In this document: piece by piece, positions 1 to 9,313 of the stretch
Layout: every line of letters begins with the position of its first letter
Numbering within the stretch: the stretch's first letter is position 1
Source: a virus
Lineage: Duplodnaviria > Heunggongvirae > Uroviricota > Caudoviricetes
IMG/VR virus record: IMGVR_UViG_2526164634_000020
Location: 1 to 9,313 of that record
Strand: one strand, 5' to 3'
DNA: 9,313 bases
Program-made: the position numbers and the translations under genes
Notes under the pieces: generated by a model
Databases searched by the model: none
The model's input: the letters and a program-made list of their open reading frames with translations, nothing else
Told to the model about the DNA's origin: nothing

Positions 1-1514
1 AACGATATTATTCCGGCCGACCACTGCCTGCATGATGTGCAGGATATGAGTACGCTGAATCATCCGAAGGCAGACCTGAGCAAAGGGCAGTACGGCTGTG
101 TCGGCCAGGGCTTACATATTGCCAAAAAACTGCTCCCGTATATCCCGAATAACGCGGGGATCCTGCTGGTACCATGCTGTCGTGGTGGTTCGGCATTCAC
201 CCAGGGCGCGGAGGGGGACATTCAGTGCGGACACGGGGGCCAGCCAGGATTCGGCACGCTGGGGGGTGGGTAAACCGTTATATCAGGACCTGATTGCGCG
301 CACTAAAGCTGCATTACAGAAGAACCCGAAAAATGTGTTGCTGGCGGTGTGCTGGATGCAGGGAGAGTTTGACATGAGCGCCGCCACCTACGCACAGCAA
401 CCTGCGCTGTTTACAGCCATGCTGAAGCAGTTTCGTGCTGACCTCACTGTGTTTAACGCGCAGTGTCATGGTGGCAGTGCTGTAAATGTGCCGTGGATTT
501 GTGGTGACACGACGTATTACTGGAAAAATACATACGCTACCCAGTACGACACCGTGTACGGCGGGTATAAAAACAGGGAGAGTGAGGGCGTTTATTTTGT
601 GCCCTTCATGACAGACGGTAACGGCGTCAATACCGCCACTAACGCACCGGCAGAAGATCCGGATATTCCGGCATCAGGATATTACGGTGCGGCATCGAGA
701 ACGAATGGAAACCAGGTATCATCAAACCGCCCGACACATTTCAGTTCATGGGCGCGCAGGAGCATTATTCCGGATCGTATGGCAACCGCTATTCTGAACG
801 CAGCCGGGCGCACCTCAGCTTTCATCAGTGGTAAGGCACCGGAAATCAAACCCTCGCCCGGCGTCGACACGCCATCGGGGCCGTCTGAAGATGCATCCGT
901 ACGCACAATCTCCCTGTTGCCGACAGCCGGAGAGGCTGCTGCGCAGGGCTGGACCATTAAGGACGGCGGAATTCAGTTGTCGGGTGGTGTATTTAAGATC
1001 GCCAAGCAGAGCAATAAAACCTGGTCCCTGATGCATCCGGTGGATGACGCAGTCTCCCTGCTGACACGGGGTGGCAGACTGAGCTGTAAGTTTCGACTGT
1101 CAGGCGCACTGACCAACAACCAGTTCGGCCTGGGAATTTATCTGTATACCGATGTAGCGTTACCTGACGTCGTGGCGATGACCGGGACTGGTAACCCGTT
1201 CCTGATGTCGTTCTTCACCCCAGACCACAGACGGCAAACTGAATCTGATGCATCACAAGAAAGCAGGAAACACAAAGTTGGGCGAGTTCGGGAATTACAG
1301 TAATGACTGGCAGACGCTGGAACTGGTGTTCACCGCCGGCAGTGCCACGGTTACTCCGAAACTGAATGGAGTGGCTGGCCCGGCATTCCAGGTCATAAAA
1401 GACAGTCTGACACTGGGGCTGAATGCGCTGACGCTGACGGATATTACCAAAAATGCAGCGTATGGCGTTGAGATAGAAAGTCTGGTGCTGGAGATAAATG
1501 CACCGGCAGCATAA
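1..1514 (+). pseudogene. nanS: Prophage sialate O-acetylesterase, NanS-p-like (SASA/DUF303 family), 5'-partial at window edge, two apparent +1 frameshifts
   Basis: Frame 1 from the window edge reads ...HCLHDVQDM...GQGLHIAKKLLPYIPNNAGILLVPCCRGGSAFTQGAEG; frame 2 continues ...TGASQDSARWGVGKPLYQDLIARTKAALQKNPKNVLLAVCWMQGEFD...PWICGDTTYYWK...TNAPAEDPDIPASGYYG...; I recognise these motifs from E. coli NanS and prophage NanS-p esterases. Frame switches at the G5 run 213-217 and again at the C4 run 1218-1221; the C-terminal part runs in frame 3 to the stop at 1512-1514. ORF-track entries 37..273, 98..1303 and 1248..1514 are pieces of this one gene. Confidence 0.6.
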
Positions 1515-1521
1515 TAAAAAA

Positions 1522-1551
1522 AGCCAGCGCCCACTCTGAAGGACGCTGGCT
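1522..1551 (-). terminator. Hairpin with flanking A/T run, candidate intrinsic terminator (better formed for minus-strand transcription)
   Basis: GCCAGCG (1523-1529) pairs with CGCTGGC (1544-1550), loop about 14 nt; A7 at 1515-1521 becomes a U-run after the stem only on the minus strand; plus-strand side is followed by TAAAAC. Confidence 0.3.
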
Positions 1552-1725
1552 AAAACGGGTAGATGTACTTCACATGATACTTATACTTGGCAGTACATTT
1601 TCTGACAGACAGTGACGGATGATGTCAAGATATTGTGTCATTTATAACCTGAATCAGGGGTGGCCGGAATGTTATCTGGCATTTTTAGCAGAGCCTGAAT
1701 GCCATAATCACGGCTCCCGGCGTTG

Positions 1726-1765
1726 GCCGTCAGTGGGTGACACTGGCGGCTTTTTTGTTTTTCTT
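1726..1765 (+). terminator. Strong rho-independent terminator upstream of the holin gene (tR-prime-like)
   Basis: 10-bp stem GCCGTCAGTG / CACTGGCGGC (one G-U pair), 5-nt loop GGTGA, then TTTTTTGTTTTT; sits 40 bp upstream of S. Confidence 0.55.
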
Positions 1766-1806
1766 TACTTTCATTTTCTGTCGGCGGTGACGGAGACATA
1801 CATCAG

Positions 1807-2013
1807 ATGGAAAAAATCACAACAGGTGTGTCATACACCACGTCAGCGGTGGGGACGGGATACTGGTTACTGCAGCTGCTGGACAAAGTCTCTCCGTCCC
1901 AGTGGGTGGCAATAGGTGTGCTGGGGAGTCTGCTGTTTGGCCTGCTGACGTATCTGACAAACCTTTATTTCAAGATTAAAGAAGATAAGCGTAAGGCTGC
2001 GAGAGGTGAATAA
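1807..2013 (+). CDS. S: Class II holin, phage-21 S-type pinholin (68 aa)
   Basis: [68 protein letters not shown]; two TMDs plus charged C-tail; near-colinear with my recollection of phage 21 S21; stop overlaps the R start (TAATG). Confidence 0.8.
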
Positions 2014-2510
2014 TGTCGCCGTCATTACGCAAGGCTGTTGCTGCTGCTATTGGTGGTGGGGCTGTTGCCATAGCGTCTGTGCTCATCACTGGTCCGAGTG
2101 GTGACGATGGCCTGGAAGGTGTCAGCTACATACCATACGAAGATATCGTTGGCGTATGGACTGTATGTCACGGACACACCGGAAAAGACATCATGCCCGG
2201 TAAAACGTATACCGAAGCAGAATGCAAAGCCCTCCTGAATAAAGACCTTGCCACGGTCGCCAGACAAATAAACCCGTACATCAACGTCGATATACCGGAA
2301 ACAACGCGCGGCGCTCTTTACTCGTTCGTTTACAACGTGGGCGCTGGCAATTTCAGAACATCGACGCTTCTTCGCAAAATAAACCAGGGCGATATCAAAG
2401 GCGCATGTGATCAGCTACGGCGCTGGACATACGCTGGCGGTAAGCAATGGAAAGGGCTGATGACTCGCCGTGAGATTGAGCGTGAAGTCTGTTTGTGGGG
2501 GCAACAATGA
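2013..2510 (+). CDS. R: SAR endolysin, phage-21 R-type lysozyme (165 aa)
   Basis: N-terminal Gly/Ala-rich signal-anchor-release segment [30 protein letters not shown] followed by lysozyme core [21 protein letters not shown]...; immediately follows the pinholin, typical pinholin/SAR-endolysin pairing. Confidence 0.9.
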
Positions 2511-2944
2511 GCAGAGTAACCGCGATTATCTACGTTCTGGTCATCTGCCTCATCGTCTGCCTTTCATGGGCTGTTAATCATTACCGTGATAACGCCATCG
2601 CCTACAAAGAGCAGCGCGATAAAGCCACATCCATCATCGCTGATATGCAGAAGCGGCAACGTGATGTAGCAGAACTTGACGCCAGATACACAAAGGAGCT
2701 TGCTGATGCTAATGCGACTATCGAAAGTCTCCGTGCTGATGTTTCTGCTGGGCGTAAGCGCCTGCAAGTCGCCGCCACCTGTGCAAAGTCAACGACCGGA
2801 GCCAGCGGCATGGGCAATGGAGAAACCCCAGGACTTACAGCAGATGCTGAACTCAATTATTACCGTCTCCGAAGTGGAATCGACAGGATAACCGCGCAGG
2901 TTAACTACTTGCAGGAGTACATTAGGACGCAATGCCTTCGATGA
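2507..2944 (+). CDS. Rz: Rz i-spanin (inner-membrane spanin subunit)
   Basis: ATGA start/stop overlap with R; [34 protein letters not shown]... N-terminal TMD plus coiled-coil periplasmic region, closely lambda-Rz-like. The ORF-track start at 2495 is GTG; ATG 2507 is the more likely start. Confidence 0.85.
2706..2891 (+). CDS. Rz1: Rz1 o-spanin lipoprotein, embedded in the +1 frame of Rz
   Basis: AAGGAG at 2693-2698 about 7 nt before ATG 2706; [20 protein letters not shown] with lipobox VSAC, then proline-rich [13 protein letters not shown] as in lambda Rz1; lies entirely inside Rz. Confidence 0.75.
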
Positions 2945-3016
2945 TAGCGATAATTTTCCCATTATCTTTCATATGCGTGATTTTAGTTAGTTTTAGTCGC
3001 AACACGAATAAAACAG

Positions 3017-3043
3017 AGAACCACCCGCTATACGAGTGGTTCT
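3017..3043. terminator. Bidirectional intrinsic terminator between convergent Rz and the minus-strand small ORF
   Basis: 8-bp stem AGAACCAC / GTGGTTCT with 11-nt loop; T-rich on both sides (plus: GATTTACACTTTTG; minus: CTGTTTTATTCG). Confidence 0.4.
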
Positions 3044-3060
3044 GATTTACACTTTTGAAA

Positions 3061-3291
3061 CTAAAAGCTAAATACTTGAGCAAGAACAGCTAGCGCTGCG
3101 CAAAAAGCAGCCCGTTTATTCCATTTACTTTGTATTTCAATGGCTTTAAAACAACCCAGTGATGAGAAACTGCCTTGTTCCGTTTTTGGTGGGTGTTCTT
3201 TGGAAGATGCAAAACATGAAATAATCCAAAAAATGGCGGAAAAAATTCCAAAAATTATTGAAGGCAAATGATGCTCTTTCAAAAACTCCAT
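3061..3291 (-). CDS. Hypothetical small membrane or lipoprotein-like protein (76 aa), AT-rich accessory gene
   Basis: MEFLKEHHLPSIIFGIFSAIFWIISCFASS...; hydrophobic N-terminal segment ending in a lipobox-like IISC; convergent with Rz and followed on its own strand by the 3017-3043 terminator. No family recognised. Several T homopolymers make the frame fragile. Confidence 0.35.
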   Translation of the reverse strand: MEFLKEHHLPSIIFGIFSAIFWIISCFASSKEHPPKTEQGSFSSLGCFKAIEIQSKWNKRAAFCAALAVLAQVFSF

Positions 3292-3903
3292 GACTTAACT
3301 CTCTTAAAAGTTGCTAAACATCGCTCGCAAACAAGAAAGAAAAGTTCTGTTGCGGGCACTCCACAATTTAAACGCCACACAAGCAGCTATTAGGTGGACG
3401 GTTCCAAGATTGCTATCAACTGCCACCCGAATACCGTCAAAACTTGACGTCCAACCAAGAATTATTGAGTTGTAAACTCAACGCAATGATCTGGTTGGTA
3501 TAAATGTGACATATGTCATGAATCGACTAGTTGAGATAGTCAAGATGGGCTTGCTTGACATCATCACCACAACCGGAGCCAACAATGGCAGATTGCGTTA
3601 CCCAGATTTGATAAAGGCATTTTAGCCTGACATAACTATGCACTGTATCGTCGCCGTATTCCCGCATCAACAGAGACCACAGCCCGAGAGGGAGACTCCT
3701 CTGCGCGAGTGTGCGGGGATAATCAAAAACGATACACACCGGGGTTTACCGTGTTAACGGAGCGCGGCGTTGTCCCCTCATGGTCGCTGGTCCGGTGCGA
3801 TGGTGGAAGAAACCGGACGATGTGTTACCTCGCAAGCTCTGTTATGTCATGTGTCTGATTTGTGATTTAAGTCGGATAATTGTCATTGCCATTAAGCAGA
3901 GGA

Positions 3904-3934
3904 TTGATGACCGACAGGGCTGCATTGTTAGAAT
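3904..3934 (+). promoter_or_regulatory. Candidate sigma70 promoter for the TonB_C lipoprotein gene
   Basis: TTGATG (3904-3909), about 19-bp spacer, TAGAAT (3929-3934), roughly 30 nt upstream of ATG 3967; pattern match only. Confidence 0.2.
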
Positions 3935-3966
3935 AAGACTTATTCTTATCTATGCCGGGAATAAAA

Positions 3967-4293
3967 ATGAAAAGAAATCTTCCGTTAATTATTTTGTTGT
4001 CTTCTTTGGTTATGGGCTGTACGCAACATAAAACAGATATGCCTCGACAGTTGGTTAAGGCATTACCACAATATCCGGCCTATGCCGCGGCAAATTATAT
4101 AAAGGGACGGGTTGATGTGAAGTTTGATATTGGTGCTGATGGTACTGTCACCCGAATTGAGTTTATCCGTTCAGAGCCGCACCATCTGTTTGATGAGCAG
4201 GTTGTAAAGGCGATGGCAAAATGGCGATTTGAGAAGGACAAGCCGCGTAAAGGCGTGAAGAAAACATTTATCTTTAGTCCTTCAGCACCCTGA
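3967..4293 (+). CDS. Outer-membrane lipoprotein carrying a stand-alone TonB C-terminal domain (about 108 aa)
   Basis: Signal peptide MKRNLPLIILLSSLVMGC with lipobox and +2 Thr; mature part LPQYPAYAAANYIKGRVDVKFDIGADGTVTRIEFIRSEPHHLFDEQVVKAMAKWRFEKDKP aligns motif for motif with the E. coli TonB C-terminal domain (QYPA..A....G.V.VKFD...DG.V......S.P...F...V..AM..WR.E..KP). The ORF-track start 3952 lacks an RBS; 3967 is preferred. Confidence 0.7.
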   Translation: MKRNLPLIILLSSLVMGCTQHKTDMPRQLVKALPQYPAYAAANYIKGRVDVKFDIGADGTVTRIEFIRSEPHHLFDEQVVKAMAKWRFEKDKPRKGVKKTFIFSPSAP

Positions 4294-4484
4294 TTATTTT
4301 ATCAGAAGTTAATTATCACTCTGTTGCTATTCAGTACATCCCTGCAGGGTAAAGTCTTGTTTCGCCGGATATGAAGATGAAATATTGTTAGAAGACAGTA
4401 GCTACCGGTTCCTGTAACCGAACGTTCATTTCTCGTTATTTTTCATGCTGGCCGGGCGCAGGTGCTTTGCACTGAGAGATCCCC

Positions 4485-5693
4485 TCATAATTTCCCCAAA
4501 GCGTAACCATGTGTGAATAAATTTTGAGCTAGTAGGGTTGCAGCCACGAGTAAGTCTTCCCTTGTTATTGTGTAGCCAGAATGCCGCAAAACTTCCATGC
4601 CTAAGCGAACTGTTGAGAGTACGTTTCGATTTCTGACTGTGTTAGCCTGGAAGTGCTTGTCCCAACCTTGTTTCTGAGCATGAACGCCCGCAAGCCAACA
4701 TGTTAGTTGAAGCATCAGGGCGATTAGCAGCATGATATCAAAACGCTCTGAGCTGCTCGTTCGGCTATGGCGTAGGCCTAGTCCGTAGGCAGGACTTTTC
4801 AAGTCTCGGAAGGTTTCTTCAATCTGCATTCGCTTCGAATAGATATTAACAAGTTGTTTGGGTGTTCGAATTTCAACAGGTAAGTTAGTTGCTAGAACCC
4901 ATGGCTCCTTTGCCGACGCTGAGTAGATTTTAGGTGACGGGTGGTGACAATGAGTCCGTGTCGAGCGCTGATTTTTTCGGCCTTTAGAGCGAGATTTATA
5001 CAATAGAATTTGGCATGAGATTGGATTGCTTTTAGTCAGCCTCTTATAGCCTAAAGTCTTTGAGTGACTAGATGACATATCATGTAAGTTGCTGATAGGT
5101 TTCCAGTTTTCCGCTCCTAGGTCTGCATATTGTACTTTTCCTCTTACTCGACTTAACCAGTACCAACCCAGCTTCTCAACGGATTTATACCATGGCACTT
5201 TAAAGCCAGCATCACTGACAATGAGCGGTGTGGTGTTACTCGGTAGAATGCTCGCAAGGTCGGCTAGAAATTGGTCATGAGCTTTCTTTGAACATTGCTC
5301 TGAAAGCGGGAACGCTTTCTCATAAAGAGTAACAGAACGACCGTGTAGTGCGACTGAAGCTCGCAATACCATAAGTCGTTTTTGCTCACGAATATCAGAC
5401 CAGTCAACAAGTACAATGGGCATCGTATTGCCCGAACAGATAAAGCTAGCATGCCAACGGTATACAGCGAGTCGCTCTTTGTGGAGGTGACGATTACCTA
5501 ACAATCGGTCGATTCGTTTGATGTTATGTTTTGTTCTCGCTTTGGTTGGCAGGTTACGGCCAAGTTCGGTAAGAGTGAGAGTTTTACAGTCAAGTAATGC
5601 GTGGCAAGCCAACGTTAAGCTGTTGAGTCGTTTTAAGTGTAATTCGGGGCAGAATTGGTAAAGAGAGTCGTGTAAAATATCGAGTTCGCACAT
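4485..5693 (-). CDS. tnp: IS10 transposase (402 aa), apparently intact
   Basis: MCELDILHDSLYQFCPELHLKRLNSLTLACHALLDCKTLTLTELGRNLPTKARTKHNIKRIDRLLGNRHL... matches the Tn10/IS10 transposase over its full length. Confidence 0.95.
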   Translation of the reverse strand: MCELDILHDSLYQFCPELHLKRLNSLTLACHALLDCKTLTLTELGRNLPTKARTKHNIKRIDRLLGNRHLHKERLAVYRWHASFICSGNTMPIVLVDWSDIREQKRLMVLRASVALHGRSVTLYEKAFPLSEQCSKKAHDQFLADLASILPSNTTPLIVSDAGFKVPWYKSVEKLGWYWLSRVRGKVQYADLGAENWKPISNLHDMSSSHSKTLGYKRLTKSNPISCQILLYKSRSKGRKNQRSTRTHCHHPSPKIYSASAKEPWVLATNLPVEIRTPKQLVNIYSKRMQIEETFRDLKSPAYGLGLRHSRTSSSERFDIMLLIALMLQLTCWLAGVHAQKQGWDKHFQANTVRNRNVLSTVRLGMEVLRHSGYTITREDLLVAATLLAQNLFTHGYALGKL

Positions 5694-5754
5694 CTTGTTG
5701 TCTGATTATTGATTTTTCGCGAAACCATTTGATCATATGACAAGATGTGTATCC
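5686..5754 (+). ncRNA. IS10 RNA-OUT antisense RNA (region retained in the truncated IS10)
   Basis: Position inferred from remembered IS10 coordinates (pOUT near nt 115 directed toward the outside end); the region contains the long imperfect inverted repeat ACATCTTGTTGTC...GACAAGATGT that forms the RNA-OUT stem. Boundaries approximate. Confidence 0.35.
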
Positions 5755-5844
5755 ACCTTAACGTAAGCGTACAGCCTGAACCGTCTGGTCAGAATCTGAC
5801 GAATTAGACAAAGTGGTGTCCACCAAATAAGTAGTGGGAACCAA

Positions 5845-5873
5845 TGAGGTAGCCTGAGTTTAACGGACACTCC
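5845..5873 (+). repeat. Left terminal inverted repeat of the IS3-family element
   Basis: See element entry; hand alignment, imperfect. Confidence 0.4.
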
Positions 5874-5908
5874 TTCCTGAAATAGAATGGCATCAGAAGG
5901 AGCTAATA

Positions 5909-7048
5909 ATGAGCAGAAAAACCCAACGTTACTCTAAAGAGTTCAAAGCCGAAGCTGTCAGAACGGTTCTTGAAAATCAACTTTCGATCAGTGAAGGTGC
6001 TTCCCGATTATCTCTTCCTGAAGGCACTTTAGGACAATGGGTTACCGCCGCCAGAAAAGGGCTCGGTACTCCTGGTTCCCGCACGGTGGCTGAACTGGAA
6101 TCTGAAATTCTGCAACTGCGTAAGGCGTTAAATGAAGCTCGCCTTGAGCGAGATATATTAAATTGCACAGGAGTCGCTGAAAAATACGCGTTAATCGAAC
6201 AATGGCGACAACAATTTCCCATTGAAGCGATGTGTCAGGTATTTGGTGTATCCAGGAGCGGTTATTACAACTGGGTACAGCATGAACCCTCAGACAGAAA
6301 ACAAAGTGATGAGCGGCTAAAACTGGAGATTAAGGTGGCGCATATCCGCACTCGCGAAACATATGGAACCCGGCAGCTCCAGACGGAGCTGGCAGAGAAT
6401 GGCATCATCGTTGGTCGTGACCGACTGGCACGTCTTCGTAAGGAGCTAAGGCTACGCTGTAAGCAGAAACGCAAGTTCAGAGCGACTACGAACTCGAACC
6501 ACAATCTGCCAGTTGCGCCAAATCTGCTGAACCAGACGTTCGCTCCTACAGCACCAAATCAGGTCTGGGTGGCGGACCTGACGTATGTTGCCACACAGGA
6601 GGGATGGTTGTACCTCGCTGGCATCAAAGATGTTTATACGTGCGAAATTGTCGGCTACGCCATGGGAGAGCGCATGACAAAAGAGCTGACAGGTAAAGCC
6701 CTGTTTATGGCGCTCAGGAGCCAGCGCCCACCTGCCGGGCTAATCCACCACTCTGATCGAGGTTCACAGTACTGCGCATACGATTACCGTGTCATACAGG
6801 AGCAGTTTGGTCTGAAAACATCAATGTCGCGTAAAGGTAACTGTTACGACAACGCTCCGATGGAAAGCTTCTGGGGAACGCTGAAAAATGAGAGCCTGAG
6901 CCACTATCGTTTTAATAACCGGGATGAAGCCATCTCAGTAATACGGGAATACATTGAGATTTTCTACAATCGTCAGCGTCGTCACTCTCGTCTGGGGAAT
7001 ATCTCCCCGGCAGCCTTCAGGGAAAAATACCATCAGATGGCTGCTTAA
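5909..7048 (+). CDS. IS3-family transposase, single fused OrfAB-type ORF (379 aa)
   Basis: AAGGAG RBS 7 nt before the ATG; N-terminal HTH (MSRKTQRYSKEFKAEAVRTV...) and leucine zipper (ELESEILQLRKALNEARLERDIL) typical of IS3 OrfA, joined in frame to an rve/DDE core (VWVADLTYV, HHSDRGSQYCA, NAPMESFWGTLKNE, NRQRRHSRLGNISP). Confidence 0.9.
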   Translation: MSRKTQRYSKEFKAEAVRTVLENQLSISEGASRLSLPEGTLGQWVTAARKGLGTPGSRTVAELESEILQLRKALNEARLERDILNCTGVAEKYALIEQWRQQFPIEAMCQVFGVSRSGYYNWVQHEPSDRKQSDERLKLEIKVAHIRTRETYGTRQLQTELAENGIIVGRDRLARLRKELRLRCKQKRKFRATTNSNHNLPVAPNLLNQTFAPTAPNQVWVADLTYVATQEGWLYLAGIKDVYTCEIVGYAMGERMTKELTGKALFMALRSQRPPAGLIHHSDRGSQYCAYDYRVIQEQFGLKTSMSRKGNCYDNAPMESFWGTLKNESLSHYRFNNRDEAISVIREYIEIFYNRQRRHSRLGNISPAAFREKYHQMAA

Positions 7049-7061
7049 AAAAAGAACAAAT

Positions 7062-7091
7062 GGTAGTGTCCGCTATTGCCAGTACACCTCA
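7062..7091 (+). repeat. Right terminal inverted repeat of the IS3-family element
   Basis: See element entry; hand alignment, imperfect. Confidence 0.4.
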
Positions 7092-7202
7092 ACATTCCAC
7101 CATGCATTCCGATTAACGCCGCATAGCCAGTTGGACTTTGCTACTTTGTGAGAGGTAGTACCTTCTATCCAGTGCGAATCTAATTAATGGAATAAATGAT
7201 TT

Positions 7203-9199
7203 ATGAGTGAAAATGATACAATCCCAAAGAAGTCTACAAGTCAGATTAACAAAGCGGTATTCTTTACATCTGCTTTGCTAATTTTCCTTCTTGTCGCCTT
7301 TGCCGCCGTATTCCCGGATGTCGCCGACAAAATTTTAAACTACTTCAGCAACAAATCTTCACGAATGCCAGCTGGTTCTACATCCTTGCTGTGGCCCTGA
7401 TTTTACTGAGTGTCACGTTCCTTGGACTCTCACGCTACGGTGATATCAAGCTGGGCCCGGACCATGCGCAGCCTGATTTCGGCCACCACTCCTGGTTTGC
7501 GATGCTTTTTTCGGCAGGGATGGGGATCGGCCTGATGTTCTTTGGCGTTGCCGAACCTGTAATGCATTATCTTTCGCCACCCGTTGGCACTCCAGAAACC
7601 GTTGCGGCAGCTAAGGAAGCAATGCGTCTGACCTTTTTCCACTGGGGACTGCACGCATGGGCAATTTATGCCATTGTGGCGCTGATTCTGGCGTTCTTCA
7701 GTTACCGTCACGGTCTGCCTTTAACTCTGCGCTCCGCACTCTATCCCATTATTGGCGATCGCATATACGGACCTGTAGGACATGCGGTTGATATTTTCGC
7801 TGTTATAGGCACGGTCTTTGGCGTTGCGACATCACTGGGTTACGGTGTTTTGCAGGTGAATGCCGGTTTGAACCATCTTTTCGGGGTGCCCATCAATGAA
7901 ACGGTGCAGGTAATTCTGATCGTGGTCATCACGGGGTTAGCGACGATTTCAGTGGTGTCCGGTCTGGATAAGGGAATACGTATCCTGTCTGAACTCAATC
8001 TGGGTCTGGCTTTGTTGCTCCTGGCGCTGGTCCTGTGTCTGGGACCAACCGTGCTTCTGCTGAAGTCATTTGTGGAAAATACGGGCGGTTATCTTTCGGA
8101 ACTGGTGAGTAAAACGTTCAACCTTTACGCGTATGAGCCCAAGTCGAGCAACTGGCTGGGGGGCTGGACATTACTGTACTGGGGATGGTGGCTTTCATGG
8201 TCGCCGTTTGTGGGGATGTTCATCGCACGGGTCTCCCGCGGGCGAACCATTCGCGAGTTTGTCACCGGCGTGCTGTTTGTTCCCGCGGGTTTTACGCTAA
8301 TGTGGATGACGGTGTTTGGTAACAGCGCGATCTATCTCATTATGAACCAGGGGGCCACAGACCTCGCCAATACTGTTCAGCAGGATGTGGCGCTGGCCCT
8401 GTTTAATTTCCTGGAGCATTTCCCGTTCTCTTCTGTGCTGTCATTCATTGCAATGGCGATGGTCATCGTCTTCTTTGTAACGTCTGCTGATTCGGGGGCA
8501 ATGGTTGTGGATACTCTGGCATCAGGTGGAGTGGCAAACACACCCGTCTGGCAGCGAATATTCTGGGCCTCGCTCATGGGCATTGTTGCAATTGCGCTTC
8601 TCCTTGCCGGAGGGCTAAGTGCGCTGCAAACGGTGACAATAGCGAGTGCATTGCCCTTCTCAGTGATCTTACTAATATCTATATACGGACTTTTAAAAGC
8701 TTTGCGCCGGGATTTGACCAAGCGTGAAAGCCTGAGCATGGCGACAATTGCTCCTACGGCTGCACGTAACCCAATTCCTTGGCAGAGAAGGTTACGCAAT
8801 ATCGCGTATCTGCCGAAGCGATCTCTTGTGAAACGTTTTATGGACGACGTTATCCAGCCCGCCATGACGCTGGTTCAGGAGGAACTGAACAAGCAGGGGA
8901 CGATAAGCCACATTAGTGATGCAGTCGACGATCGTATTCGTCTTGAAGTCGATTTGGGCAACGAGCTGAATTTTATATATGAAGTGAGGCTTCGCGGGTA
9001 TATCTCACCGACCTTCGCGCTCGCCGCAATGGATAATGATGAGCAGCAGACTGAACAACATCGATATTATCGCGCTGAGGTTTATCTCAAAGAAGGCGGT
9101 CAAAATTATGATGTGATGGGCTGGAACCAGGAACAGCTGATTAATGACATACTGGACCAGTACGAAAAACACCTGCACTTCCTGCACCTGGTTCGTTAA
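7203..9199 (+). CDS. BCCT-family transporter, BetT-like choline/betaine transporter, with apparent -1 frameshift near the 5' end (possible pseudogene)
   Basis: BCCT signature WTLLYWGWWLSWSPFVGMFIARVSRGRTIREF; C-terminal cytoplasmic tail resembles BetT. The N-terminus (7203-7355, frame 3: MSENDTIPKK...ADKILNYFSNK) continues as IFTNASWFYILAVALILL... in frame 2; the shift lies at the A3 run 7353-7355. ORF-track entries 7203..7400 and 7391..9199 are one gene. Confidence 0.8.
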
Positions 9200-9261
9200 T
9201 AGCAACATGCCGTCCTGGGGGCGGCAATTATTATCCCGGCCGCAATATGGGGGAATGCAGA

Positions 9262-9313
9262 ATGATTTCACGCTGGAAATGGATGCTGAAGCAGACAATT
9301 AAAAAACTATGGT
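9262..9313 (+). CDS. Possible 5' end of a downstream gene (partial, unknown product)
   Basis: ATG 9262 with G-rich SD-like GGGGGAA about 7 nt upstream; frame open to the window end (MISRWKWMLKQTIKKLW...). Too short to classify. Confidence 0.2.
   Translation, partial: MISRWKWMLKQTIKKLW

Follow-up and report, generated by a model that had tools for sequence, protein, structure and literature searches.

A small TonB C-terminal-domain lipoprotein gene beside a prophage lysis cassette and its candidate role as a TonB mimic

The window analysed here is the whole stretch of 9,313 nucleotides of a Caudoviricetes record (IMG/VR record IMGVR_UViG_2526164634_000020, positions 1 to 9,313), in which a short gene encoding a TonB C-terminal (TonB_C) domain lies between a lysis cassette (1807..2944), whose gene order is common to the window, phage 21, UTI89 and E2348/69, and a series of insertion sequences. 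The features of this region are the following:

1807-2013, plus strand: P21-type pinholin (profile match), lysis cassette
2013-2510, plus strand: lysozyme, lysis cassette
2495-2944, plus strand: Rz, lysis cassette
2676-2891, plus strand: Rz1, embedded in Rz, lysis cassette
3061-3291, minus strand: small two-helix ORF between Rz and the TonB_C gene, in the slot of bor/iss in phage 21
3907-3934, plus strand: promoter-like site (ATGACC, 16-nt spacer, TAGAAT) with an extended -10, TGTTAGAAT, at 3926-3934 (consensus match)
3930-3946, no strand assigned: perfect 8-1-8 palindrome, AGAATAAGaCTTATTCT, overlapping the -10 (from the sequence)
3967-4293, plus strand: coding sequence of the predicted TonB_C lipoprotein, 108 aa, stop included (ORF, Pfam, PDB, AF2 and RefSeq)
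3967-4020, plus strand: signal peptide with lipobox, residues 1-18, MKRNLPLIILLSSLVMG-C18 (read from the sequence)
4021-4044, plus strand: short tether, residues 19-26, TQHKTDMP (AF2 strand start and pLDDT rise)
4045-4278, plus strand: TonB C-terminal domain, residues 27-104, including the YP motif Y36/P37 and the beta-3 strand 94-103 (Pfam, PDB and AF2)
4426-4471, minus strand: 3' remnant, 46 bp, of a convergent DUF3950/YlcI gene (coordinates transferred from L001)

The YlcI remnant is cut by an IS4-family element, the end of which (CTGAGAGATCCCC...) starts at 4472, and which is followed by an IS3-family element / IS600 and then by a frameshifted BCCT transporter gene. The head and tail genes of the prophage are lost in the window, and the junction between the insertion sequences and the BCCT transporter is absent from all complete E. 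coli genomes compared. An earlier sequence-only reading of this DNA had placed the gene in AT-rich accessory DNA between the lysis cassette and IS elements; both parts of that description stand, the flanks being pinholin–lysozyme–Rz/Rz1 upstream and the IS4-family element from 4472 downstream, with a GC content of 43.1% for the TonB_C gene against 51.3% for the lysis cassette.

The same interval, 3967-4293, is annotated identically in E. coli E2348/69 as “TonB family protein” (RefSeq WP_000828067.1), and the two sequences are 99.9% identical over window positions 3700-4474. The ATG at 3967 is favoured over the one at 3952, because the stretch from the ribosome-binding site to the former (GGAATAAAAATGAAAAG) is also kept in phage 21, where the segment carrying the latter is deleted. 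The promoter-like site ends 33 nt 5' of the start codon, and its extended -10 is retained in phage 21 as TGTCAGAAT; five such sites were found versus 3.2 expected in shuffled sequences, and it is to be read as a consensus match only. As the late genes run on the same strand, read-through from the late operon is likely; no terminator is predicted downstream. The palindrome at 3930-3946 was considered as a conserved operator and rejected, as phage 21 lacks its right half. Regulation by Fur was also discarded: the best upstream match to a Fur box reaches 13/19 positions, a score attained by about 6% of shuffles, and is not kept in phage 21. Over positions 2900-4500, no structured RNA was matched in Rfam.

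The sequence-only reading had described the product as a lipoprotein signal followed by a TonB_C fold and nothing else, and had proposed a profile search and structure prediction as checks, both of which bear it out. Residues 34-101 match the Pfam domain TonB_C (PF03544) with 57.2 bits (gathering cutoff: 24.6; E=2.4e-15), and TIGR01352 is matched with 57.1 bits (cutoff: 27.1), while searches against the PDB align residues 26-104 with residues 153-231 of E. coli TonB in the C-terminal domain structures 1u07, 2gsk and 2grx (E~1e-16). An AF2 model computed from a 12-sequence family alignment has a mean pLDDT of 86.8, rising from 55 (residues 11-20) through 83 (21-30) to 96 (31-40) and exceeding 95 through the TonB_C domain. 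Its top PDB structure matches (Foldseek) are all TonB C-terminal domains (rmsd 1.0-1.3 Å, TM 0.89-0.92), including the TonB chains of BtuB:TonB (2gsk; rmsd 1.0 Å, TM 0.92) and FhuA:TonB (2grx; rmsd 1.1 Å), and Y36-P37 of the lipoprotein align with Y163-P164 of TonB. Among viral structures, no BFVD match was obtained at E<=0.001, and no PADLOC defence-system model was matched.

What is missing is equally informative. The 108-aa protein has neither a TonB-like N-terminal membrane anchor nor a proline-rich spacer, as the sequence-only reading had noticed, and it scores only 50-74 bits against the full-length TonB equivalogs (NCBIfam, PRK10819), whose cutoffs lie at 265-448 bits, with only the last ~85 profile positions matched. 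It belongs to the TonB_C domain family but cannot be called a TonB, since the tests for anchor and rod both fail. In the place of these two elements stands a signal sequence in which the n-region, h-region and lipobox of a lipoprotein are all present (MKRN-LPLIILLSSL-VMG-C18). Both E. coli clades and distant relatives retain the lipobox, which a pattern scan recovers in 18 of 24 family members examined, and its Cys is invariant or nearly so across three family alignments. Under the Lol sorting rule, a Thr, Ser or Ala at position +2 directs a lipoprotein to the outer membrane, and in the family the residue after the Cys is always one of these three, never Asp (Thr19 here). On these sequence grounds, Cys18 is predicted to be the acylated N-terminus and Thr19 to route the protein to the outer membrane through Lol. 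The first ordered strand of the AF2 model starts at residue 28, hence the domain is set off from the lipid anchor by no more than about eight residues.

A protein reduced to the end of TonB could, at face value, be the functionless remnant of a captured tonB gene, and older annotations suggest just that (“partial tonB-like membrane protein ... CP-933N”, “TonB fragment”). The population data speak against it. Of 5426 complete E. coli genomes, 414 carry the allele of the window type and 1221 the phage 21-type allele (at least 99% identical in 1203 of the 1221), so that 1635 genome matches carry an intact gene, mostly at 95-100% identity, and its position is conserved across genera. Between the window and phage 21, whose copy (gp73, “TonB C-terminal domain protein”) is 70% identical and adjoins bor, dN/dS amounts to 0.13 over a dS of ~1.5, and the lipoprotein signal peptide, an acquired feature, is kept from clade to clade. 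With so low a ratio, and with the signal peptide and the Cys of the lipobox both conserved, a decaying tonB fragment is ruled out. We attach next to no probability to that reading, and the worry, voiced in the sequence-only reading itself, that homologues might be mere pieces of full-length tonB genes is disposed of. The TonB_C lipoprotein gene is instead a dedicated and conserved small gene under purifying selection. Among deposited phage genomes, 15 of 50,697 yield a match, and lambda (NC_001416) is not one of the 15.

The position of the gene is as stable as its sequence. Across 80 IMG/VR loci, with the evaluable subset serving as denominator in each case, Rz is found no more than 2.5 kb upstream in 56 of 59 loci, YlcI/DUF3950 lies downstream in 50 of 50, and a small terminase subunit, of two different types, follows downstream in 45 of 50. 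The order in intact prophages is thus lysis genes, TonB_C gene, ylcI/DUF3950 (minus strand), an optional HNH gene and the terminase genes, and the same lysis–terminase slot holds the TonB_C gene in a Klebsiella phage (41% identity) and in a prophage of Serratia montpellierensis. Insertion between Rz and terminase, a GC content of 43% against 51% and presence/absence polymorphism are all as in a moron, and the recurrence at lysis-proximal sites that the sequence-only reading had wished to see surveyed is borne out, although relatives also occur at non-phage sites (see below).

Such a location invites the view that the protein belongs to the lysis module, as a spanin-like component or lysis regulator acting late in the lytic cycle. 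Over its full length it matches phrog_1267, a group labelled “Rz-like spanin” (E=3.4e-42), and its gene stands on the same strand directly downstream of the lysis genes, which makes transcription from the late promoter probable. Yet the locus already has its full Rz/Rz1 pair, some 1 kb upstream, and there are homologues without lysis genes nearby. Moreover, o-spanins are small and proline-rich, quite unlike the compact, confidently folded TonB_C domain found here. Despite the PHROG 1267 profile match, the protein does not qualify as a spanin; most likely, the label of that group stems from misannotated neighbours, and a part in lysis appears very improbable.

The gene keeps the company of other envelope-modifying conversion genes, which also counts in favour of the TonB mimic discussed below, namely iss/bor and an ompC-like porin in UTI89, where the phage 21-type allele sits beside both in a prophage integrated at icd, and sitABCD in phage 21. 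An envelope-stabilising function might be envisaged, in which an outer-membrane lipoprotein would bind peptidoglycan as a tether of the Lpp/Pal/Bor kind and raise the resistance of the lysogen to serum or stress. In favour of this reading, the gene adjoins iss/bor, coding for a serum-survival lipoprotein, in phage 21 and UTI89, chromosomal homologues (see below) would suit a housekeeping role in the envelope, and the C-terminus of TonB is said (Kaserer et al., 2008) to have a LysM-like fold and to bind peptidoglycan. Against it, a tether of ~8 residues would be too short to reach the peptidoglycan as Lpp does, the protein has no similarity to Bor, and its conserved residues are those tied in TonB to discrimination between transporters and colicins (PMC3005593). 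On balance, we regard such a tether as rather improbable.

This last point deserves closer inspection. Cys scanning has pointed to seven functionally important residues of TonB, Y163, F180, G186, F202, W213, Y215 and F230 (PMC3005593), and all seven positions are kept in the lipoprotein, as Y36, F53, G59, F75, W86, F88 and F103, respectively. Over 24 family sequences they are near-invariant, with F/Y exchanges only. Among TonBs generally, four of the seven show a conservation of 22-53%, but they are conserved in enterics, which is thought to track, or co-evolve with, transporter recognition (PMC3005593). The TonB box docks on the beta-3 strand of TonB by beta-augmentation (PMC11658791), and in the AF2 model the corresponding strand (94-103) is followed only by a short, non-conserved SPSAP tail. 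Other positions have diverged, which counts against mimicry of TonB: the equivalent of TonB 158-162, a segment implicated in touching the TonB box, is variable in the family, P161 alone being kept, even though TonB deleted for 158-162 retains 60% of transport (PMC3005593). The position of TonB R166 is a conserved Tyr throughout the family. In TonB, R166 is a residue that we take to contact the FhuA plug.

Homologues were also sought beyond phages. An exhaustive HMMER search returned many relatives of ~100-135 aa that align from residue 1, most of them with a lipobox, and a scan of species-representative genomes with a 7-sequence alignment gave 15 loci in Raoultella, Klebsiella, Serratia, Erwinia, Pantoea and Pseudescherichia, one of which is a prophage. 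The other loci examined have ordinary chromosomal neighbours: in Serratia grimesii the homologue lies between a ycgN-like gene and dsbB, in Raoultella it adjoins lacI/lacZ and a DUF1440 gene, and in Erwinia it adjoins panE. TonB_C lipoproteins of ~110 aa are thus found at non-phage chromosomal sites in Serratia, Raoultella, Erwinia and Pantoea, and at those examined, none of the neighbours is a phage gene, a TonB-dependent transporter or exbBD. The family has a signature of its own, distinct from that of TonB (YPxYA, SEPxHLFD, KPxxGM). As judged from these searches, the phage gene is one branch of an uncharacterised enterobacterial family of TonB_C lipoproteins, and, given the homologues at non-phage chromosomal sites, phage defence cannot be the only role of that family.

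These relatives lend weight to an alternative in which the protein would be an accessory or regulatory partner of TonB-dependent uptake and no anti-phage decoy. On this view, enterobacteria would have an outer-membrane lipoprotein of their own that binds to particular transporters or to TonB and thereby adjusts the level or the order of uptake or acts as a gate, for instance by keeping idle transporters parked; phages would have borrowed it for the fitness of their host. The lipobox-bearing relatives of ~110 aa at non-phage sites in Serratia grimesii, Raoultella and Erwinia, as well as the family-specific signature, which differs from TonB, point in this direction, and the gene is compatible with a siderophore-dependent life in ExPEC. 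However, no link to a transporter, to exbBD or to iron regulation emerged in any context examined, there is no conserved Fur box, and no such regulator is described in the literature searched. We therefore deem this alternative unlikely, if less so than an envelope tether. In mechanistic terms, it overlaps with a mimic of TonB, the main difference being one of purpose.

Altogether, the best-supported mechanism is that of a predicted dominant-negative TonB mimic acting at the outer membrane, which we advance tentatively, as plausible rather than probable. The lipid anchor and its ~8-residue tether would hold the TonB_C domain just beneath the outer membrane, presumably at the height of the periplasmic mouth of the transporters, where these expose their TonB boxes. 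As the membrane anchor and the proline-rich rod are missing, the protein can neither couple to ExbB/ExbD nor deliver energy, and it is this inability to energise that makes a dominant-negative mimic its likeliest action. It might do so in two ways, either by occupying the TonB boxes of transporters or colicins through strand addition at the beta-3 edge, or by trapping the scarce real TonB in non-productive mixed dimers. Of periplasmic TonB domains, Howard and colleagues reportedly suggested that they either compete at the transporters or pair with TonB into mixed dimers that do not function. With the phage lipoprotein, the outcome would be a reduction of TonB-dependent uptake, which could make a lysogen or a late-infected cell more tolerant to phages of the T1/phi80 type, group B colicins and siderophore-microcins, at the cost of some loss of siderophore iron uptake. 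SitABCD is a TonB-independent Fe/Mn importer, and the sitABCD genes that phage 21 also carries could offset that cost.

Two precedents make both halves of this scenario conceivable. First, the sequence-only reading had pointed out that free periplasmic C-terminal fragments of TonB inhibit TonB-dependent transport. This agrees with what PMC9841981 relates of Howard et al. (2001), in whose work TonB-dependent transporters imported less iron when a periplasmic domain of TonB was overexpressed. By the same account, the published inhibition required overexpressed soluble fragments (Howard 2001, via PMC9841981), a point that weighs against the mimic. Second, in phage T5 the lipoprotein Llp, located in the inner leaflet of the outer membrane, attaches to FhuA from the periplasm and depends on its acyl anchor (10.64898/2026.03.26.714494). 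Llp thus demonstrates that a lipoprotein anchored in this leaflet by an acyl chain is able to close a TonB-dependent transporter from within the periplasm.

The strength of any such inhibition is nonetheless constrained by the distribution of the gene, which is nearly invariant in ExPEC such as UTI89. The virulence of ExPEC needs TonB-dependent siderophore uptake. In view of this near-invariance in siderophore-dependent strains, a strong constitutive inhibition of TonB is unlikely, and any inhibition would be mild, selective or conditional. The tail tips of the carriers were examined as well: the C-termini of the J proteins of phage 21, UTI89 and E2348/69 are 35-64% identical to lambda J, and the last 150 residues of these three proteins have no similarity to HK022 J. 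Self-exclusion through FhuA is thus not supported, the J tips of the carriers being of the lambda type and not of the HK022/FhuA type.

In its boldest form, the mimicry hypothesis would make this protein the first viral TonB mimic, a lipid-tethered “cap” on TonB boxes or on TonB itself that confers on lysogens a broad tolerance to TonB-dependent invaders, with the chromosomal relatives as unrecognised endogenous brakes on TonB-dependent transport. The invaders meant are phages of the T1/phi80 type, group B colicins, siderophore-microcins and sideromycin antibiotics. We rate this full version as somewhat unlikely, and below the plain mimic.

Should the protein indeed mimic TonB, a single small gene would modulate the sensitivity of its host to TonB-dependent phages, colicins, microcins and siderophore-conjugated antibiotics, as well as iron uptake. 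With carriage in 22-30% of complete E. coli genomes (roughly a quarter), including EHEC, EPEC and ExPEC, this would have a bearing on phage therapy, on microcin competition in the gut and on “Trojan horse” drugs, of which cefiderocol is one. It would also amount to a new principle of exclusion, in which imitation of the energy coupler affects a whole class of transporters, as opposed to the single receptor of Llp/Cor, and would offer a natural, evolved inhibitor with which to probe the interactions of TonB boxes and TonB dimers. Whatever the phenotype, an uncharacterised family of predicted outer-membrane lipoproteins is now defined in enterobacteria.

The existence of the gene is not new, since it is already annotated in phage 21 and in EHEC prophages; the novelty lies in a proposal of function based on architecture. 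No paper on this protein was found in the literature searched, in keeping with the opinion of the sequence-only reading that this is not a characterised protein. All descriptive claims of that reading hold, and the decoy or superinfection-exclusion function that it proposed is plausible. Beyond that reading, our analysis adds the non-phage chromosomal relatives and the lambda-type tail tips of the carriers.

Among known systems, the obvious comparison is with the C-terminal domain of E. coli TonB itself (residues ~150-239; 1u07, 1xx3, 2gsk, 2grx), with which the lipoprotein shares its fold, the YP motif, the seven functional residues and ~38-44% identity. Unlike TonB, it has no N-terminal anchor, no ExbB/ExbD coupling and no proline-rich rod, and is predicted to be held by a lipid at the opposite membrane; its tail is four residues shorter and proline-rich, and the family has motifs of its own (YPxYA, SEPxHLFD) while segment 158-162 is not conserved. 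A TonB_C domain outside the classical TonB architecture also occurs in NCBIfam NF047760 (LIC_10042 family TonB-like protein), which nevertheless belongs to a different lineage and is only weakly matched (30.4 bits against a cutoff of 100). To our knowledge, none of the other short TonB_C protein lineages, such as NF047760, is phage-borne.

Among the conversion genes, Bor/Iss (lambda bor, ExPEC iss) is likewise an outer-membrane lipoprotein encoded in the interval between Rz and cos, and directly adjacent to the TonB_C gene in phage 21 and UTI89, but it is encoded on the opposite strand, has a proposed role in serum survival and shows no sequence similarity to the TonB_C lipoprotein. Llp of T5 and the lambdoid Cor proteins, which mediate superinfection exclusion by acting on FhuA, are small phage-encoded lipoproteins too, Cor being a known accessory gene of HK022. 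However, they are specific to FhuA, allosterically so for Llp, whereas a TonB mimic would act generically via TonB boxes or TonB; their fold is unrelated to TonB_C; and genes of the Cor/Llp type come after J, whereas the TonB_C gene comes after Rz. HK022 Cor gives no BLASTP alignment with the TonB_C lipoprotein, and the Llp chain of FhuA:Llp (PDB 8A60) is absent among the best 50 PDB matches listed. The engineered periplasmic TonB fragments of Howard et al. (2001), as presented in PMC9841981, similarly consist of an isolated TonB domain in the periplasm and inhibit FecA- and FhuA-dependent transport; by that account they are artificial, soluble and overexpressed, whereas the phage protein is the product of a natural gene and is predicted to be lipid-tethered to the outer membrane. 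By analogy, then, its closest functional counterparts would be these engineered TonB fragments and, as far as location is concerned, Llp.

The profile that matches the entire TonB C-terminal-domain (TonB_C) protein, PHROG phrog_1267 (E=3.4e-42), carries the label “Rz-like spanin”, which is probably an annotation error inherited from the adjacent genes. In this protein, Leu33 (codon 4063-4065) is the equivalent of TonB Q160, and Q160L is the classical TonB substitution by which mutations in the TonB boxes of FhuA and colicin M are suppressed (PMC11658791). This likeness may nonetheless be a coincidence, since position 33 varies across the family, in which it is occupied by L, Y, H, K, R and other residues. 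As a separate observation, many of the best matches outside the family are long proteins (P0034, P0037, P0043 and others; 370-1300 aa) with three to five tandem TonB_C domains.

The TonB_C gene is accompanied in the window by the following features, from the prophage remnant through the insertion sequences (IS) to a transporter gene:

98-1303 and 1248-1514, plus strand: SASA-family (sialate O-acetylesterase-like) prophage gene, in two overlapping frames
3043-3017, minus strand: strong terminator-like hairpin at the 76-aa ORF, stem of 12 bp
3061-3291, minus strand: 76-aa ORF with two hydrophobic segments
3282-3254, minus strand: promoter-like site of the 76-aa ORF, 10/12 matches
3800-3865, plus strand: mini-ORF MVEETGRCVTSQALLCHVSDL, 5' of the TonB_C gene
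4472-7100: IS4-family element abutting the prophage remnant, followed by IS600
5909-7048: single fused transposase ORF (379 aa) of the IS600 copy, which is next after the IS4-family element
7203-7400 and 7391-9199, plus strand: BetT-subfamily BCCT transporter, in two overlapping ORFs

The 76-aa ORF between Rz and the TonB_C gene is probably a second accessory gene. It occupies the slot and the strand held in phage 21 and in the UTI89 prophage by the lipoprotein conversion genes bor/iss. Its sole match is PHROG 14357 (function unknown), and it is annotated as hypothetical in E. coli E2348/69. On the other strand, the initial ~10 codons of the mini-ORF recur in phage 21 gp72 (MVEETGSCITES...; L003 3846-3983), where they are likewise the first, and the DNA around it, CCGGTGCGATGGTGGAAGAAAC, is kept in both the window-type and the phage 21-type clades.

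Because the DUF6645 matches of the SASA-family gene continue past the break between its two frames, this gene is frameshifted in the window; it is unbroken in E2348/69 and in strain 2013C-3033. The BCCT transporter gene likewise appears to be frameshifted, its ~60 N-terminal residues lying in an overlapping ORF of their own and the profile match of the long ORF starting at position 62. The transposase and the end (CTGAGAGATCCCCTCATAATTTCCCC) of the IS4-family element at 4472 resemble those of IS10. The succession of prophage remnant, IS4-family element and IS600 was not found in any complete E. coli genome, and the DNA may therefore come from Shigella or from an E. coli rich in IS elements.

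Among related elements, phage 21 (OL657228) carries sitBCD, an Fe/Mn ABC importer, 3' of the tail fibres (L101 10968-13001), with bor and the TonB_C gene also aboard. In the icd-integrated prophage of UTI89, iss, the TonB_C gene and the gene for an ompC-like porin all fall inside 4 kb (L102 16354-20327). A TonB-independent metal importer could compensate for a putative TonB inhibitor encoded by the same phage. Finally, a gene for a DUF1440 (YagU-like) membrane protein lies a few kb from the TonB_C lipoprotein gene in a Klebsiella phage (L004 1277-1903) and in two Raoultella chromosomal loci (L086 6738-7301; L088 6727-7290), with 61% protein identity between phage and chromosome, and the pairing may reflect an accessory-gene cassette common to these loci or what is left of a prophage.
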